A stretch of DNA of 64,000 nucleotides from Dehalococcoidia bacterium. Lineage in GTDB: Bacteria > Chloroflexota > Dehalococcoidia > DSTF01 > JACRBR01. Under the pieces are notes generated by a model. The model saw only the letters and a program-made list of their open reading frames with translations. It made no database searches and had not been told where the DNA came from. The position numbers and the translations under genes were made by a program. This document shows, piece after piece, positions 1 through 34,092 of the stretch. Where the stretch lies: positions 1-64,000 of the forward strand of contig JBGQBE010000002.1 of assembly GCA_041494685.1 (NCBI GenBank), in the 5' to 3' direction. Numbering within the stretch: position 1 is the first letter of the stretch; every line of letters starts with the position of its first letter.

Positions 1-692
<692 letters not shown>

Positions 693-27818: not shown

Positions 27819-29195
27819 TCAGGAAGGGCCGGAGTGAGACTCCGGCGGATGTGCCGATGCCAGTCTGATCATATCGGATTCGATCCCCAGATGATACTCG
27901 CGGACGGCCGCCACGAACGCGATGGAGCCGAACGCGACGACCGTGCCGCGGCCTCCCGCATCGGCCGCCGCGGCTTCGAGCGCCTGGGGCAGCGCGCCCA
28001 GCACGGTCACCGGCGCATCGTGCGCGCGGAAAGGCTGCGCCGCATCGCGCGGGTCCGCGGCGCGCGCGCCCGGCCACGCCGTCACGTACACGTGGTCGGC
28101 CGCCTCCGCGACCGCCGCCGCCATGCCCTCGACGTCCTTGCCGGCCAGCGTGCCGAAGACGAACGCCGCGTGCGCCAGCCCGAAGTGATCACGCAGCGCC
28201 GCTACCATCCGCTTCGCCGAGTCGCCGTTGTGCGCGCCGTCGATGATCAGCAGCGGCTTCCGCGACAGCACCTCCATGCGCCCCGGCCACGACACCGCCG
28301 CCAGCCCGGCGCGCACGTGCCGCGGCGTCAGCTCGATGCCCGCGCGCGCGGCGAAGCGCTCGCACGCGACGACGGCGGTCGCGGCGTTGTCGAGCTGGTG
28401 GCGGCCGATCAGCGGCAGCGACGCGGCGTACGTCGCCCGCGGCGTCTTGAGCTTGAACTCCTGCCCGTCCGAGGTCGCGGACGTGCGCGCCACCTGGCAC
28501 GCCGCGGCCACCTCGATCAGCGCCGCGCCGCGCTCGGCCGCGAACGCGCGGAACACGTCGATCGCCGATTCGCGCTGCGGCGCCGCGACGACGTCAGCGC
28601 CGGGCGTGATGATCGCCGCCTTCTGCGCCGCGATGGCGCCGATCGTGCCGCCGAGGATGGCCGTGTGCTCCAGGCTGATCGGCGTCAGCACGACGACGTC
28701 CGTCGCATCGAATACGTTCGTGGAATCGAGCAGGCCGCCGAGGCCGACTTCCACCACCTGCGCCTCCACGCCGGCGTCGCGGAAGGCGACGAAGGCCGAC
28801 GCCGTCAGCGCGTCGAAGGCGAGGAGCTGGCGGCCGGGGAAGCGCGGCGCGACGCGCTCCATCGCCTCGCGCACGGTGGTCATCGCCGCGGCAAATCCCT
28901 CCGGCGCGATCGGCGCGCCGGCGACGCGGATGCGCTCGGTGTAGCGGTGCAGGTGCGGACTGACGTACGCGCCTGTGCGGACCCCGGCGGCCCGCAGCAC
29001 GGCCTCGATCATGGCGAGCGTGCTGCCCTTCCCCTTCGACCCGGCGACGTGCACGGTGCGGCGCCCCAGGTGCGGCTCGCCGAGTTCGGCCAGCAGCGCG
29101 CGCACCGGCGCGACGTCCGGCCGGTCGGCGAACTCGCCGGTACGCTCGAAGTCGGGCAGGGAGAGGAGCCAGCGCAGCGACGCGTCGTAGTCCAT
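27819..29195 (-). CDS. folC: Folylpolyglutamate/dihydrofolate synthase
   Basis: HVAGSKGKGST, SPHL...ERI, EVGLGGLLDSTN, WPGRME, DGAHN. Confidence 0.94.
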   Translation of the reverse strand: MDYDASLRWLLSLPDFERTGEFADRPDVAPVRALLAELGEPHLGRRTVHVAGSKGKGSTLAMIEAVLRAAGVRTGAYVSPHLHRYTERIRVAGAPIAPEGFAAAMTTVREAMERVAPRFPGRQLLAFDALTASAFVAFRDAGVEAQVVEVGLGGLLDSTNVFDATDVVVLTPISLEHTAILGGTIGAIAAQKAAIITPGADVVAAPQRESAIDVFRAFAAERGAALIEVAAACQVARTSATSDGQEFKLKTPRATYAASLPLIGRHQLDNAATAVVACERFAARAGIELTPRHVRAGLAAVSWPGRMEVLSRKPLLIIDGAHNGDSAKRMVAALRDHFGLAHAAFVFGTLAGKDVEGMAAAVAEAADHVYVTAWPGARAADPRDAAQPFRAHDAPVTVLGALPQALEAAAADAGGRGTVVAFGSIAFVAAVREYHLGIESDMIRLASAHPPESHSGPS

Positions 29196-29217
29196 CGCGC
29201 TCAGGGTAGCAAGTCGG

Positions 29218-29247
29218 TTGACAGCGCCCGACGCCGCATCTTATGAT
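29218..29247 (+). promoter_or_regulatory. Near-consensus sigma70 promoter of the ABC exporter leader
   Basis: TTGACA-18 nt-TATGAT. Confidence 0.75.
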
Positions 29248-29295
29248 GCGCGTCAGGCCCGTGGCCTGACATGCGATCGGAGCGCAGGACTTTCG

Positions 29296-29406
29296 ATGAG
29301 AACCTTGGAGACCAGCATCGCGTTCGTCCTTCGTGGGCGCGCCACCAATAGAGGTGGAGTGCCTGTGGGGGGGATGCGTGTGCCCAGCGGGAGTGGTGAG
29401 CATTGA
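29296..29406 (+). CDS. Putative 36-aa leader (attenuator) peptide
   Basis: AGGA RBS; MRTLETSIAFVLRGRATNRGGVPVGGMRVPSGSGEH; overlaps the 5' arm of an antiterminator. Confidence 0.55.
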   Translation: MRTLETSIAFVLRGRATNRGGVPVGGMRVPSGSGEH

Positions 29407-29439
29407 GTTAGCCGAGCACCCCCGGGCCGCACGCATTCC

Positions 29440-29473
29440 ACCCACTCGCGCGATGAGGCGAAGTGGGTTTTTT
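29440..29473 (+). terminator. Intrinsic terminator (attenuator) in the 5' leader of the ABC exporter
   Basis: ACCCACTCGC-loop-GCGAAGTGGGT followed by TTTTT, about 45 nt before the ATG. Confidence 0.8.
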
Positions 29474-29519
29474 GTCGCCCGGCCGCGGGCAGCGGCCGGG
29501 AGTGCGCCAGGAGCGAACC

Positions 29520-30434
29520 ATGACACTGCAACAGGGCGAAATCGAATCGAAACCATACGGCGCGCCGGCGGCGATCGACGTGACGCTGCCGCTGCGCGCC
29601 GACCACGTGGTGAAGTCGTTCGGCGGCGGCTTCGACTTCAAGCGCGTGCTGCCGTGGAACCGTAACGGCAAGTCCGGCGACGGGCCGCGCCGCGTCGTCG
29701 ATGACGTGTCATTCGAGATCCGGCCGGGCGAGATCTTCGGCGTGATCGGCGCGAACGGCTCCGGCAAGTCGACGCTGATCCGCATCATCAGCACGCTGCT
29801 GCTGCCGGACGCCGGCGGCGTGCGGATCTTCGGGCTGGATGTGACGGAGGAGCCGATGCGCGTGCGGGCGCTGATCAACCGCGTGTCGGCAGACCCGTCG
29901 TTCTTCCGGAACATGACGGCGCTGGAGAACCTGCTGTTCTTCGGCCGCGTCTACGGCCTGACGCCGAAGCAGGTGAAGGAGCGGACGCCGGAGATCCTGC
30001 GCCGCCTGGGGTTCGAGTGGAAGCGCGCGCTGGAGCCGATGAGCAACCTGTCGCGCGGCCAGCAGCAGAAGGTGGCCGTGGCAAGGTCGTTCCTCACGTC
30101 GCCGGTGCTGATGCTGCTCGACGAGCCGACGACCGGCCTGGACCCGCGCAGCAAGCGCGACGTGCAGACGTTCATCCGCCGCGTGCAGCAGGAGCACAGC
30201 GCATCGATCTTGCTGACCACGCACGACATGGACGAGGCGGAGCAGCTGTGCGACCGCATTTCGTTCATCTCGGGCGGGCGGATCGTCGCGGAGGGCACGC
30301 CGCTGGAGTTGCGGCAGATGGTCGCCGGCGGGCGACCGATCGAAAGCATCAACATGGAGACGGTGTTCATGGAGCTGACCGGCCGCAGCGTCGAGGACGA
30401 CGAAGAGCCGGCGGCGGTTGGCGCGGGCGCATGA
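29520..30434 (+). CDS. ABC exporter ATP-binding subunit (DrrA/CcmA-like)
   Basis: GANGSGKST, LSRGQQQ signature, LLDEPTTGLDP, TTH; AGGAG RBS. Confidence 0.93.
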   Translation: MTLQQGEIESKPYGAPAAIDVTLPLRADHVVKSFGGGFDFKRVLPWNRNGKSGDGPRRVVDDVSFEIRPGEIFGVIGANGSGKSTLIRIISTLLLPDAGGVRIFGLDVTEEPMRVRALINRVSADPSFFRNMTALENLLFFGRVYGLTPKQVKERTPEILRRLGFEWKRALEPMSNLSRGQQQKVAVARSFLTSPVLMLLDEPTTGLDPRSKRDVQTFIRRVQQEHSASILLTTHDMDEAEQLCDRISFISGGRIVAEGTPLELRQMVAGGRPIESINMETVFMELTGRSVEDDEEPAAVGAGA

Positions 30435-30480
30435 CGCGCCCGACGCCGCCGCAGCTGATGGCACCTGGAAGGAGAGCATC

Positions 30481-31335
30481 GTGGCAACACTGAGCCAACC
30501 GTTACCGGTCGCGCCGCGCGCGTCGAACGCCACGCTGGCGTGGGCGTTCGTGGAACGGCAGACCAACCTGTGGAAGCGCTACTGGGCATGGGAGATCGTC
30601 TGGCTGGTCTACGGCGTGGTGAACACGCTGGCGATCACGTTCATCGCGAAGCAGGTGGGCAGAGACAGCGCCGCGGGCAGCGCGGACGTGTCACGGCTGA
30701 TCCTGTTCCTGCTCATCGGCACGCTGGTGTGGGCGTACCTGTCGGCCGTGCTCGACGACATCAGCCTCGTCGTCACGTGGGAGCGCTGGGAGGGGACGAT
30801 CGAGCACACGCTGATGGCGCCGGTGCCGCGCGTCGTGCACCTGCTGGGCATGTCGCTGTTCGGCGTGCTGCACGCCGTCGTGCGCACGCTGCTGATCTTC
30901 GCGATCGCCATCCCGTTCTTCGACGTGCAGCTCGCGCAGGCGGACTGGCTGACGGCGGCGGTAGTGCTGTTCACCGGCAGCTTCGCCATCGCCGGGCTGG
31001 CGATCCTGGCGGGCGTGCTGCCGCTGCTCTACCCGGAGCGCGGCACGCAGATGTCGTTCATGGTGCAGGCGCTGGTGCTGCTGGTCAGCGGCGTCTACTA
31101 CCAGGTGGGCGTGCTGCCGCCGTGGCTGCGCGTGTTCTCGCACGTCTCGCCCGCGACGTACGTGCTGGACGGCATCCGCGGCGGCATTATCGACGGCAAG
31201 AGCGTCGCCGACGTGTGGCGAGATCTGCTGGCGCTGGCCGTCTTCGGCGCGGTGCTGCTGCCCGGGAGCATGTCAGTGTTCGCGGTCGCGGAGCGCTGGG
31301 CGAAGAAGACGGGGCGGCTGAAGCGCCAGGGGTGA
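30481..31335 (+). CDS. ABC-2 type permease
   Basis: About 6 TM segments; ERWEGTIEH..MAP, SGVYY...LPPWL...SPATY; AAGGAG RBS with GTG start. Confidence 0.9.
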   Translation: MATLSQPLPVAPRASNATLAWAFVERQTNLWKRYWAWEIVWLVYGVVNTLAITFIAKQVGRDSAAGSADVSRLILFLLIGTLVWAYLSAVLDDISLVVTWERWEGTIEHTLMAPVPRVVHLLGMSLFGVLHAVVRTLLIFAIAIPFFDVQLAQADWLTAAVVLFTGSFAIAGLAILAGVLPLLYPERGTQMSFMVQALVLLVSGVYYQVGVLPPWLRVFSHVSPATYVLDGIRGGIIDGKSVADVWRDLLALAVFGAVLLPGSMSVFAVAERWAKKTGRLKRQG

Positions 31336-31438
31336 TCTGGTCGCTGTATGCGCTGCCGCGCCAGGCCTTTCGCGGGCACGGTGACGACGGTGAAGAGCGG
31401 CCGGCCGAAGCGGTCGTAGCGACGGGAGCACCCGGCCG

Positions 31439-33856
31439 CTACGCGGCGAGCTCTACGTCGTCGGTGTCGCCAACGTCCGCCGGCCCGAAACCACCGAGGC
31501 GGCGGGCGCGGTACAGGCGCAGCAGCGCGCCGACGACGCGCGGCGAGAACTGCCGGCCCGAGCAGGCGAAGATCTCGCCGACCGCCTCAGTGACCGTCCG
31601 GCCGGGCCGGTACGGCCGGTCGTTGGTCATGGCGTCGAACGCGTCAGCGACGGCGACGATCGTCGCCGCCTCGGGGATCGCGTCGCCGGCGAGGCCGGCC
31701 GGGTAGCCGCTGCCGTCCCAGCGTTCGTGGTGGGCGCGCGCGACGGACGCCGCGAGGTCGAATCCGGGACGGGCGGCGAGGAACTCCGCACCCCACACGG
31801 TGTGCTGCTTCATCACGATCCATTCCTCCTCGGTGAGCGCGCCGGAGCCGCGCAGGATCGTGTCGGGCACGCGCACCTTTCCGACGTCGTGCAGCACCGC
31901 CGCCATGCCGAGGCGCTGCGCGCTCTCCTCATCGTCACCAAGCTCCAACGCCAACGCCTCCGTCAGCCCTCGCACGCGGGCCAGGTGGCTGCCGGTAGCG
32001 GCGTCGTGGGCCTCGACCGAGGCGGCCAGCATGAGCACGGTCTCATCGCGCGCGCTCGCCAGCTGCTCCGTCGCGACCTGCAGGTGCGCGACGAGGCGCT
32101 CAGTCCAGATCACGGCCGCGACGTGCCTCGCAACCTCCACGAGGAACTCCGAGTCGGGCAGGTCGATCGACGCCGTCTCCTTCCTTGCGGCCGAGAGGCT
32201 GCCGATCACGCGACTCTGCCAGATCACGGGCACGGTGATGCCGCAGTGCAACCCGGCGGACAGCAGCACGCGCCGCTCTTCTTCGGTGATCCGCGGATCG
32301 GTGCTGAGATCCGTCAGGATCACGGGGCGCCGCGTCCGTTCGATGACGACACGCACCGGATGGTTGACGACGCCGCGATTTGCGGTGAACCACTCGGAGA
32401 CGGCATCTTCAGGCGCGTCGGTTACAAGGCCCACGGCAAGGGTCGTGTCTTGCTCCTGGAACCGGATGCCTTCGTCGAACACGTTGAAGTTAATGCCCGC
32501 GAACCCGGCCGCCCGGGCGACGTGGCTCGCCACGAGGTTGAGCTTGGCGTTGAGCGTTTCACCCTCGGCGAGGAGCGGGATCAGCTCGCCGACGACGCGC
32601 GCGGCACGGTCGCGGCCGGTGCGCGTGCCGCGCACGCCCTCCGATCCGATCCTCGTGTGCCGCCGTTTGTCGGCGTACATGGCGGCGTCCGCCAGCCCGG
32701 TCAGTTCCTCGATCCGGCCGGCGTCCTCCGGATAGACCGCGATGCCCACGCTCACACGGATCGGGACGGCGGCCCCGGTATCCGGGTCGCGGAGGTCGGC
32801 GCCGGCCAGTTCGTCCTTCAGGCGGCGGCCATACGCTTCGGCGCGCGCCCGATCGGCGCCATCCAGCACAGCGATGAACTCATCGCCGCCGGACCGGCCG
32901 ACCTCCGCGCCTTCGATCTGCATGGCCCGGGCCACGGTGTGGAGCACGGCATCGCCCATCAAGTGACCGAACGTATCGTTCAGCGCCTTCATCTCGTTGA
33001 CGTCGACGATCACCATCGACACACACCGCTGATCTCGCGCCTTCCGCTCTACGAGACGCACGAAGGTCTGGCCGATCGCGCCCTGATTCAGCACGCCGGT
33101 GAGCGGATCGTGGCGCGACTGTTCCGTGACGATGGCCAGCGTGTCGTGCAGGCGGCGGTGGTAGCCGGTCAGGACGTGCCAGAACACGCCGACCAGCAAG
33201 AGGCCAACGACGCTGATCACCAGCGTCCCGGCCAGGACGAGGTCTGTGCTGCTCCCCAGCCCGTCGAGCTGCCCTTGCACGGCATCCTTGTGATCGGTTG
33301 CCTGGGCATCGATGCTCTGCTGGACCTGCTTGAGGATCGGCTGGACATCTGTGGCGTCGATGGCGTTCGCAGCACCCAGGTCGCCCGCGGCGGACGTCGC
33401 GCGTGCTCGCGCGGCAGCCTCCCGGTACCGGGCGAGCTGCGGCCCGAGCGCAGCGATGAACGCCTGATCCTCCGGCACGCCCAGCGCATTCACCTGCGCC
33501 AGCGCCTGATCCAGCGCCTCGGCCGCGGCCTCATGCCGCGCCAGGACATCGGTCGATGGTTCGAGCCGGTAGCGGCGGCTGACCGCCTCTTCGCGGATGA
33601 TCAGGTAGTGTGCGTCCTGGTAGGCGTTGTTGAGCCTGCTCGCCTGGTCGACGCTGGCGGCCGAGGAACGCGTCGTCGTCGCCACCGCGACCGCCAGGGC
33701 GATCAGCGCCGCGAGTACGACGAGCAAGCCGACGGTCGCGCCGCGACCGATGACGCGCGCCTTCTCCACCGCGCCGGGCGCCACCCACACCGGCCCCCGC
33801 GGAGAAGCGATCGCGCGCTCCGGCGTCCCCCGGGCCGGTCCCTGACCAGGCTCCAT
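31439..33856 (-). CDS. Membrane-anchored GGDEF-GAF-HD-GYP c-di-GMP signalling protein
   Basis: Two TM segments flanking a helical sensor; HDPLTG, NDTFGH..GD, GGDEF; GAF-like segment; LHDVGK, HHERWDGSGYP. Start uncertain. Confidence 0.88.
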   Translation of the reverse strand: MEPGQGPARGTPERAIASPRGPVWVAPGAVEKARVIGRGATVGLLVVLAALIALAVAVATTTRSSAASVDQASRLNNAYQDAHYLIIREEAVSRRYRLEPSTDVLARHEAAAEALDQALAQVNALGVPEDQAFIAALGPQLARYREAAARARATSAAGDLGAANAIDATDVQPILKQVQQSIDAQATDHKDAVQGQLDGLGSSTDLVLAGTLVISVVGLLLVGVFWHVLTGYHRRLHDTLAIVTEQSRHDPLTGVLNQGAIGQTFVRLVERKARDQRCVSMVIVDVNEMKALNDTFGHLMGDAVLHTVARAMQIEGAEVGRSGGDEFIAVLDGADRARAEAYGRRLKDELAGADLRDPDTGAAVPIRVSVGIAVYPEDAGRIEELTGLADAAMYADKRRHTRIGSEGVRGTRTGRDRAARVVGELIPLLAEGETLNAKLNLVASHVARAAGFAGINFNVFDEGIRFQEQDTTLAVGLVTDAPEDAVSEWFTANRGVVNHPVRVVIERTRRPVILTDLSTDPRITEEERRVLLSAGLHCGITVPVIWQSRVIGSLSAARKETASIDLPDSEFLVEVARHVAAVIWTERLVAHLQVATEQLASARDETVLMLAASVEAHDAATGSHLARVRGLTEALALELGDDEESAQRLGMAAVLHDVGKVRVPDTILRGSGALTEEEWIVMKQHTVWGAEFLAARPGFDLAASVARAHHERWDGSGYPAGLAGDAIPEAATIVAVADAFDAMTNDRPYRPGRTVTEAVGEIFACSGRQFSPRVVGALLRLYRARRLGGFGPADVGDTDDVELAA

Positions 33857-34006
33857 GCCACGTACTCCATCCGATGAACAGGAACCTGCAAGACGCCATA
33901 CCCGAAGCAGGTCTAGAGCATGTGTCGGCGGCCCTGTTACGGAGTTAAGGGGGTGCGCACGCAAGTAGGGGGTATCACCTCGCACGGCCCCAACCGATGC
34001 GCCGGG

Positions 34007-34039
34007 AAAAAGCCTCGCACCAACGCGATTCAGTGCGAG
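34007..34039 (-). terminator. Intrinsic terminator closing the cysteine operon
   Basis: Minus strand CTCGCACTGA-loop-TTGGTGCGAG then GCTTTTT, downstream of cysM. Confidence 0.7.
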
Positions 34040-34092
34040 CGATCCGGGCGTCGCGTCCGTCACCAGCGATTAGTCACGCCGCGACACGGCGC

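Follow-up and report, generated by a model that had tools for sequence, protein, structure and literature searches.

In a 64,000-nucleotide (nt) stretch of DNA from an uncultured member of the Dehalococcoidia (phylum Chloroflexota; positions 1 to 64,000 of contig JBGQBE010000002.1, assembly GCA_041494685.1), hereafter the window, we uncovered a leader ahead of an ATP-binding cassette (ABC) exporter operon, which we read, with a probability of about three in four, as a ribosome-mediated transcription attenuator, opened by a delay of the lead ribosome on a short upstream open reading frame (uORF). All the elements of this leader are held in the 325-nt gap between folC and the gene for a DrrA-like ABC ATPase, and they comprise a short ORF with a ribosome-binding site (RBS) following a promoter, an intrinsic terminator preceding the main gene and, inside the ORF, one arm of an antiterminator that overlaps the terminator. 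A preliminary description of this DNA had proposed a translation-coupled attenuator of this architecture, and the comparative evidence supports it: the reading frame is kept in all 55 distinct copies that we recovered, the upstream partner of the terminator 5′ arm falls inside the uORF in 52 of the 53 copies scored for it, and the promoter recurs in 50 of 51. Judged by its sequence conservation, the leader is a real family, new within a known kind of switch, in uncultured Chloroflexota.

The core of the element was delimited by a DNA search of 60 relatives, which returned 19 strong matches, the only ones used, with the conserved stretch corresponding to window positions 29364-29481, i.e., the long hairpin and the terminator. 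In all 20 loci thus assembled (the window included) the orthologous ATPase and permease genes lie directly downstream. The long hairpin is an antiterminator of 81 nt (29365-29445; this and the other window features are on the forward strand unless stated), with a folding energy of −47.9 kcal/mol in the window and of −27 to −48 kcal/mol across the 20 loci. Its 5′ arm (29365-29385) coincides with uORF codons 24-30 and begins with GUGGG, and its 3′ arm (29424-29445) ends in ACCCAC (29440-29445), which doubles as the 5′ arm of the terminator; the pairing of these two arms claimed in the preliminary description is thus recovered, with the inner pairing uniting them in a single hairpin. The terminator itself (29440-29473) has a 7-bp basal stem, in which ACCCACU (29440-29446) pairs with AGUGGGU (29462-29468), followed by a bulge, a 3-bp upper stem and a T6 tract (29468-29473). 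Its energy in the window is about −14 to −16 kcal/mol, with a median of −14.4 kcal/mol over 53 copies (−15 to −19 kcal/mol in the first 20 loci) and T5-T7 tracts in most copies. A simple terminator scan, restricted to 3-8-nt loops, did not list it, on our reading because of its bulge and long loop.

The word GUGGG at the start of the antiterminator 5′ arm is the same as that in the terminator 3′ arm; hence, two identical words, at 29365 and 29464, compete for CCCAC (29441-29445). The upstream GUGGG, CCCAC and GUGGGUUUUU, which spans the terminator 3′ arm and its tail, are invariant in the first 20 loci. As ACCCAC is common to both hairpins they are mutually exclusive, as had been proposed, with the proviso that the exclusion extends over the basal 5-6 pairs only. 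Immediately abutting the antiterminator on its 5′ side is a further hairpin, P1 (29335-29364; uORF codons 14-23), which differs in sequence among the 20 loci and is kept at the same place in every one of them, at −15 to −28 kcal/mol; in the model-based alignment all 11 pairs of its helix show changes on both sides. The leader as a whole (267 nt) folds better than 200 of 200 shuffled versions (z = −4.1). Against Rfam 15, searched at permissive thresholds, it had only matches of the level expected by chance, the best being to eukaryotic models of miRNA and snoRNA whose gathering scores lie far above the 15-20 bits obtained.

A covariance model of P1 and the antiterminator (R1; 37 pairs), built from the 20 loci, detected one site per genome in 46 of the 93 genomes of the order, a second match in G058 being the reverse strand of the same place. 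The sites are unevenly spread over the families: 29 of the 35 genomes of f1 plus that of the window, 11 of 16 in f5, 5 of 21 in f2, and none in the 18 of f3 or the two of f4. Among 100 loci fetched by means of the ATPase protein, R1 matched 30 from Chloroflexota and none of the orthologues labelled Acidimicrobiales or of the more distant paralogues; a weak match of 18 bits in L045 lies 1.2 kb upstream of a paralogue. After the model was rebuilt on 54 matches (R2), a class-level sample of 151 genomes gave matches in 13, with four credible copies outside the order (in G193, G108, G155 and G229), and a phylum-level sample of 150 other Chloroflexota genomes gave one weak match and no credible copy. 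The class-level matches L153-L156 and the phylum-level match L160 were rejected as bare terminators or coding sequence, having neither a uORF nor an exporter. The 55 distinct copies are accordingly made up of 51 from the order and named records and four from the class sample; one of them, L019, comes from a genome flagged as unpublished (G021), and no claim depends on it alone. The site lies 7-450 nt upstream of an ATPase homologue in 50 of the 51. Judging from titles and the beginnings of abstracts, we found no leader-ORF attenuator of an ABC exporter in Chloroflexota in the literature.

Conservation argues that the uORF is a real, conserved reading frame. In the window it has 36 codons (29296-29406), as had been described, with a Shine-Dalgarno-like AGGA (29286-29289) 6 nt before its ATG at 29296 and a TGA (29404-29406) towards the apex of the antiterminator. 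All 55 copies contain a homologue of this frame, 29-42 codons long and with its stop in the apical part of the long hairpin (33-42 codons, median 36, in the 51 scored ones); it starts with ATG in 47, TTG in five and GTG in three, and ends with TGA in 53 and with TAG and TAA in one each. By comparison, the other two frames contain an ORF of 28-45 codons ending in the same region in six of 74 cases, one of them with an ATG; this count leaves out the true frames of L137, L146, L150 and L152, with which the tally is 10 of 78. A Shine-Dalgarno-like purine motif is found at −18 to −4 of the uORF start in 47 of the 51 scored copies. Moreover, in codons 2-12 A makes up 44% of the first positions and C 59% of the third, a position-specific composition that is expected of translated sequence in a high-G+C genome and not of non-coding RNA. 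The alignment of leaders from orthologous operons, which had been suggested as a check on the architecture, returned both a conserved frame and covariation. The place of the stop codon is likewise constrained: it follows GUGGG by 39 nt in all but one of the first 20 loci, as in most of the others, and precedes the terminator stem by 26-38 nt (median 30; 51 scored copies). A ribosome is reported, in the available text of the relevant study (PMC4824070), to repress a terminator located too near the stop codon, and a distance of about 30 nt would avoid such repression.

The encoded peptide displays a recurrent block, V-G-[GR]-[MTI]-S-[VA]-[PS], which coincides exactly with the 21-nt 5′ arm. In the 37 copies with standard spacing the entropy of this arm is 0.39, 0.29 and 0.33 bits at codon positions 1, 2 and 3, as against 1.39, 1.36 and 1.44 bits in the six codons that follow it. 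The block varies at unpaired RNA positions, whether the change is synonymous or not, and in the folds, as we read them, its most variable positions (the third base of codon 2 and the first base of codon 3) fall at an internal loop. As there is no relaxation at third positions, the frame matters and the amino-acid sequence of the conserved block probably does not; the nucleotide pattern points to the conserved C-terminal “peptide” being a constraint at the level of RNA. The G/U-rich nature of the 5′ arm allows its 3′ partner to drift. A C-terminal arrest peptide of the TnaC kind, at a fixed distance from the UGA, was set aside given the equal variability at all codon positions. RNAalifold also draws a small local hairpin within the arm itself (29365-29388), pairing GUGGG with CCC.GC, each pair of which is kept in 18-20 of the 20 loci; this hairpin, or the invariant arm itself, could be a polymerase pause or recognition signal.

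The two candidate stalling motifs of the preliminary description fared less well. SIAFVL, loosely likened there to SIFVI of ErmCL, is not conserved, and what recurs (33 of 51 copies) is a looser motif of a hydrophobic residue followed by Phe. This Phe falls at variable positions within residues 2-13, where it makes up 5.9% of residues as opposed to 1.0% elsewhere. The +X+ motif RGR is weakly conserved: such a motif is present in 22 of 51 copies, in peptides of which arginine makes up 14% of the residues.

The competition between the two RNA states is a recurrent property of the family. When the terminator 3′ arm is left out of the fold, four or more of the six nt of the terminator 5′ arm find a partner over 45 nt upstream in 52 of the 53 scored copies, the partner lying inside the uORF; the other two of the 55 failed the automatic terminator call though their hairpins are present. 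The preliminary description implied that the antiterminator simply out-competes the terminator, and this does not hold: in the energy model the two states are near-isoenergetic, the difference between them (terminator minus antiterminator) being −1.2 kcal/mol at the median, with half of the values between −4.3 and +1.5 (interquartile range) and a full range of −11.5 to +5.1 kcal/mol. With the overlap confined to the basal pairs, the antiterminator would be a kinetic rather than a thermodynamic block, and with near-isoenergetic states any readthrough must arise from the order of synthesis. In a model-based alignment, the fixed-register consensus is paired in 66.4% of cells, versus 37-44% with the partners slid, and its covariation score is 0.236, versus 0.06-0.11 slid, a value reached in none of 500 shuffles. 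For the terminator the corresponding figures are 81.5% versus 33-53%, with the basal pairs essentially invariant. RNAalifold on plain MAFFT alignments recovers only the terminator and the small local hairpin, because the 3′ arm aligns poorly; hence, we used per-sequence folds and the model-based alignment.

A ribosome was then represented as a mask from −12 to +14 nt around the P site, and pair probabilities were computed for the RNA up to the U tract, in a model that disregards steric restriction on pairing across the bound ribosome. With no ribosome, the terminator has a probability above 0.5 in 33 of 51 copies and the antiterminator in 16, the window giving 0.44 for the terminator and 0.50 for the antiterminator. 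With the ribosome on the 5′ arm these counts become 48 and one, and the window values 0.91 and 0.00; with its P site at codon 10 they are 29 and 20, and 0.06 and 0.78. With the ribosome at the stop codon all the values return to those of the ribosome-free RNA (33 and 16; 0.44 and 0.50), because there its footprint covers the apex only. Folding the leader with uORF nucleotides masked, a check suggested at the outset, thus raises the terminator probability of the window from 0.44 to 0.91 when the mask lies on the 5′ arm. The earlier proposal that translation permits termination and an early stall permits readthrough fits this energy model, given the 48 of 51 copies that favour the terminator when the arm is masked; its wording that full translation of the uORF permits termination holds only for a ribosome on codons ~20-30 and not for one at the stop codon.

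The comparisons establish the anatomy, the translated frame, the competition for CCCAC and the energy balance; how the switch is set, what part kinetics plays and which signal induces it we infer as follows. Two states are open to the transcript: an antiterminated one, in which CCCAC (29441-29445) is paired with the GUGGG at 29365 in the uORF, and a terminated one, in which it is paired with the GUGGG at 29464, with U6 next to it. Being transcribed first, the antiterminator would win if undisturbed, letting the polymerase read into the ATPase and permease genes. If, by the time the terminator is made, the first ribosome has entered the 5′ arm (P site roughly on codons 20-30), CCCAC would be left free, the terminator would form and transcription would end near 29473. 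The fixed place of the stop codon, with 39 nt separating it from GUGGG and ~30 nt from the terminator stem, would keep the ribosome off the terminator, and P1 is possibly a pause hairpin that synchronises ribosome and polymerase. Since a ribosome in the 5′ arm gives the terminator, a delay or stall in the first ~20 codons would switch the exporter on; such a delay might come from a translation inhibitor, from poor initiation or from lost coupling of transcription and translation. Of these, the sensing of antibiotics is plausible by analogy: the likeness to bmrB-bmrCD of Bacillus subtilis, the portability of the leader and the erm-style leaders of Acidimicrobiales-type genomes (all taken up below) make it a reasonable lead.

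Several observations weigh against the attenuator as we draw it. The terminator is already favoured at equilibrium without a ribosome in the aforesaid 33 of 51 copies, which makes readthrough rely on a presumed kinetic advantage of the antiterminator. A ribosome at the stop codon leaves the 5′ arm uncovered and has no effect in the model (33 copies for the terminator, 16 for the antiterminator), so that the state to be expected under tight coupling would not clearly permit the terminator. No more than 66% of cells fit the fixed-register consensus structure; this shows register shifts between lineages, for which reason more weight is due to per-sequence folds. Roughly half of the order lacks the element (46 of 93 genomes having a site). 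Among 24 public sequencing runs listed, no RNA run covering this stretch was found, and both the transcript start site and the 3′ end near 29473 are predicted positions only. Finally, hardly any variation is seen at any codon position of the 21-nt 5′ arm, for which the needs of pairing alone are an insufficient explanation; it is conceivable that some other factor reads the RNA of this arm.

This last point leads to an alternative that we regard as improbable, namely a factor-sensing RNA switch, wherein P1 and the antiterminator form an aptamer or protein-binding site, occupation of which would stabilise or disrupt the antiterminator, and the uORF is secondary or incidental. Riboswitches often control exporters. 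The nucleotide-level conservation of the 5′ arm without third-position relaxation, the maintenance of P1 by covariation and the near-isoenergetic states, as in riboswitch expression platforms, would all suit such a device. Against it stand the constancy of the uORF in frame, start, stop and length (all 55 copies, when the other frames offer a comparable ORF in six of 74 cases), the Shine-Dalgarno-like motifs and the codon-periodic composition; further, outside the 5′ arm and a loop word around the stop, the interior of the hairpin varies freely in sequence and length, and the leader has no Rfam match.

The other alternatives make more of the uORF than a platform for ribosomes. A gene for a functional 36-residue product, such as an exported or signalling peptide that the exporter would handle, with a terminator of its own and the exporter expressed by leak-through, would account for the succession of a short ORF with an RBS, a terminator and an ABC exporter, a layout also seen in bacteriocin loci and those of ribosomally synthesized and post-translationally modified peptides, and for the recurrent V-G-[GR]-[MTI]-S-[VA]-[PS] block. 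We hold this to be very improbable: there is no sign of selection on amino acids, variability being equal at all codon positions in the conserved and variable parts alike, the N-terminal half is poorly conserved, the conserved block is exactly the RNA arm that competes with the terminator, and no modification or processing genes lie nearby. Hardly any credence can be given to an attenuator of amino-acid supply of the trp/his type, in which a stall at codons for a scarce amino acid opens the operon. Its general layout is alike, and ANC codons (Ile, Asn, Ser and Thr) are over-represented among codons 2-12; yet none of the peptides listed contains a run of a single regulatory codon, the regulated genes code for exporters of two classes rather than for biosynthetic enzymes, and a 1:2 anti-antiterminator is missing, since P1 and the 5′ arm have no overlap.

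Returning to the ribosome-mediated attenuator, the genes placed under it offer a further view of its use. Of the 51 order-level copies, 50 are followed by a DrrAB-like ABC-2 exporter. Another transporter can take its place behind the leader, as two copies precede exporters of the BmrCD-like class: in G050 the leader (L146, C38:104839-104968) is followed by two half-transporters with fused transmembrane and nucleotide-binding domains (ABC_membrane and ABC_tran; L147:1987-5180), and in G229 (L152:1501-1646) by an ORF of 75 residues and then an exporter of the fused type. In G155, a sister genome of G229, the same leader and the same 75-residue ORF precede a DrrA-like ATPase. The homologous 75-residue ORFs between leader and exporter (L151:1838-2065 and L152:1847-2074) come from two genomes of one genus.

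A different arrangement is seen in another phylum, in six Acidimicrobiales-type genomes, where an orthologous ATPase (60-67% identity) and permease (68-71%) are encoded behind tiny uORFs of 5-8 codons (L032:1322-1437, L033:1234-1347, L034:1235-1350, L035:1402-1515, L157 on the reverse strand, and L159). These uORFs begin 11-12 nt past a −10-like box, with MRNVVFL shared by two of them, and in the minimum-free-energy (MFE) fold they pair with the Shine-Dalgarno sequence or start codon of the ATPase gene in six of six cases, which suggests that they would act as erm-style translational attenuators. The transporter is sporadic in that order, occurring in three of 81 sampled genomes.

In the window, the exporter comprises a DrrA-like ABC ATPase of 304 amino acids (29520-30434; PF00005), which matches TIGR01188 (drrA) at 7e-66, below the curated cut-off, and an ABC-2 type permease of 284 amino acids (30481-31335; PF01061) with a weak drrB match; the substrate is not deducible from the homology of either. 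The ATPase has an N-terminal extension of ~55 residues (29520-29690), the NCBIfam and Pfam alignments beginning at about residue 55, and FGGGFDFK near its start is conserved enough to serve as a search pattern. In the centroid fold, the Shine-Dalgarno sequence AGGAG (29509-29513) that precedes the ATPase gene is left unpaired, with no stable sequestration. Transcription would be driven by a sigma-70-type promoter (29218-29247), with TTGACA at 29218-29223, an 18-nt spacer and TATGAT at 29242-29247, making 11 of 12 matches to consensus. This promoter, already marked in the preliminary description, is the sole such site in the 3.5 kb of 28500-32000 (0.1 expected in shuffles), and 50 of 51 copies retain TTGACN-16..19-TANNNT ahead of the uORF, whose start follows the end of the −10 box at a median distance of 41.5 nt. 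From it a transcript start at about 29254 is predicted. There, the MFE and centroid folds have a 5′-terminal stem-loop (29254-29268; 6 bp with a 3-nt loop), which may stabilise the transcript; by eye, and uncounted, its sequence is near-identical in part of family f1 and absent from other lineages. Both folds also have a 9-bp GC-rich hairpin (29478-29500) between the terminator U tract and the ATPase RBS, and comparable hairpins follow the terminator in several relatives, again by eye and uncounted. Flanking the operon are folC on the reverse strand (27819-29195; TIGR01499) and a convergent gene (31439-34063, reverse strand) for an 874-residue signalling protein with CHASE3, GGDEF, GAF and HD (HD-GYP-like) domains by Pfam, which is probably unrelated to the leader.

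To switch on drug exporters and resistance genes only as required, bacteria classically rely on leader-ORF attenuators that report ribosome trouble, and these have been worked out almost wholly in Firmicutes, Actinobacteria and Proteobacteria; the present leader would be an example from uncultured Chloroflexota. It is well delimited, single-copy and strongly conserved, comes with 55 natural variants, and has an anatomy clean enough for the direct design of mutants. Through it, an otherwise anonymous ABC-2 exporter and two exporters of the BmrCD-like class are singled out as probably responsive to translation stress, which gives a lead to what they transport. How the position of the ribosome is turned into a decision to terminate may be approached through the invariant 5′ arm and the constant place of the stop codon. 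The near-invariant arm and the fixed 39-nt and ~30-nt spacings around the UGA may amount to a timing device, in which a hairpin-dependent polymerase pause after P1 and a terminating ribosome acting as a wedge could take part, the arm then being more than a mere pairing partner. Taking the exporters and leaders together, one might tentatively, and on balance doubtfully, picture a portable translation-stress cassette placed before two unrelated classes of ABC exporter, with a rewiring in Acidimicrobiia by leaderless tiny-uORF translational attenuators, the whole marking the exporter as a resistance determinant. If so, the resistance would be directed against some ribosome-targeting natural product in sediment and soil communities.

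In the trp and his leaders of Escherichia coli the position of the ribosome on the leader ORF selects antiterminator or terminator, as would be the case here; unlike them, our leader has no runs of regulatory codons and no 1:2 pairing, its genes code for exporters, and its stop codon lies downstream of the antiterminator 5′ arm rather than just before it. In translational attenuation of the ermC type, the region of the leader ORF sequesters the Shine-Dalgarno sequence or start of the main gene. This is what the six Acidimicrobiales-type orthologues resemble, with their tiny uORFs paired with the RBS of the main gene; the leader of the window is not of this type, because the Shine-Dalgarno sequence of its ATPase gene is not stably sequestered in the centroid fold, and control would be exerted at transcription termination.

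Among high-G+C bacteria, the whiB7 leader of mycobacteria is, in the available text, a uORF-controlled attenuator that reports translation stress and controls a transcription factor, not an exporter (PMC10274678); it is likened to ours by description and not by sequence. The mef(E)/mel (msrD) leader of streptococci provides, as far as the accessible accounts go, transcription attenuation of macrolide-inducible efflux (PMC4335068, PMC10314930), and in it, as may be so in our element, leader-peptide-dependent attenuation controls an efflux or resistance operon, with ribosome-bound drug as the signal. As described in those accounts it features short leader peptides with a defined drug-dependent arrest on Firmicutes mobile elements, whereas our leader has no established arrest motif and the regulated genes are ABC-2 or type I ABC exporters.

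The closest parallel in design is bmrB-bmrCD of B. subtilis, for which the available text (PMC4191407) describes ribosome-mediated attenuation of a multidrug ABC exporter that is induced by lincomycin, chloramphenicol and erythromycin. It is set apart from our leader by its description, not by its sequence, and belongs to a different phylum. Both have a leader ORF upstream of an ABC exporter and a terminator with an overlapping antiterminator, and in both models efficient translation leads to termination and slowed ribosomes to readthrough (PMC4191407). The differences lie in the layout and energetics. The terminator, antiterminator and anti-antiterminator of bmrB are all reported within the coding region (nt 60-162; PMC4191407), whereas here the uORF ends at 29406, ~30 nt before the terminator (29440), with its stop in the antiterminator loop and no anti-antiterminator. 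Likewise, the bmrB antiterminator is given as less stable than the terminator (PMC4191407), whereas in our folding model the two states are near-isoenergetic. Finally, blocking the translation of bmrB is stated to have lowered expression (PMC4191407); for the leader described here the opposite is predicted.

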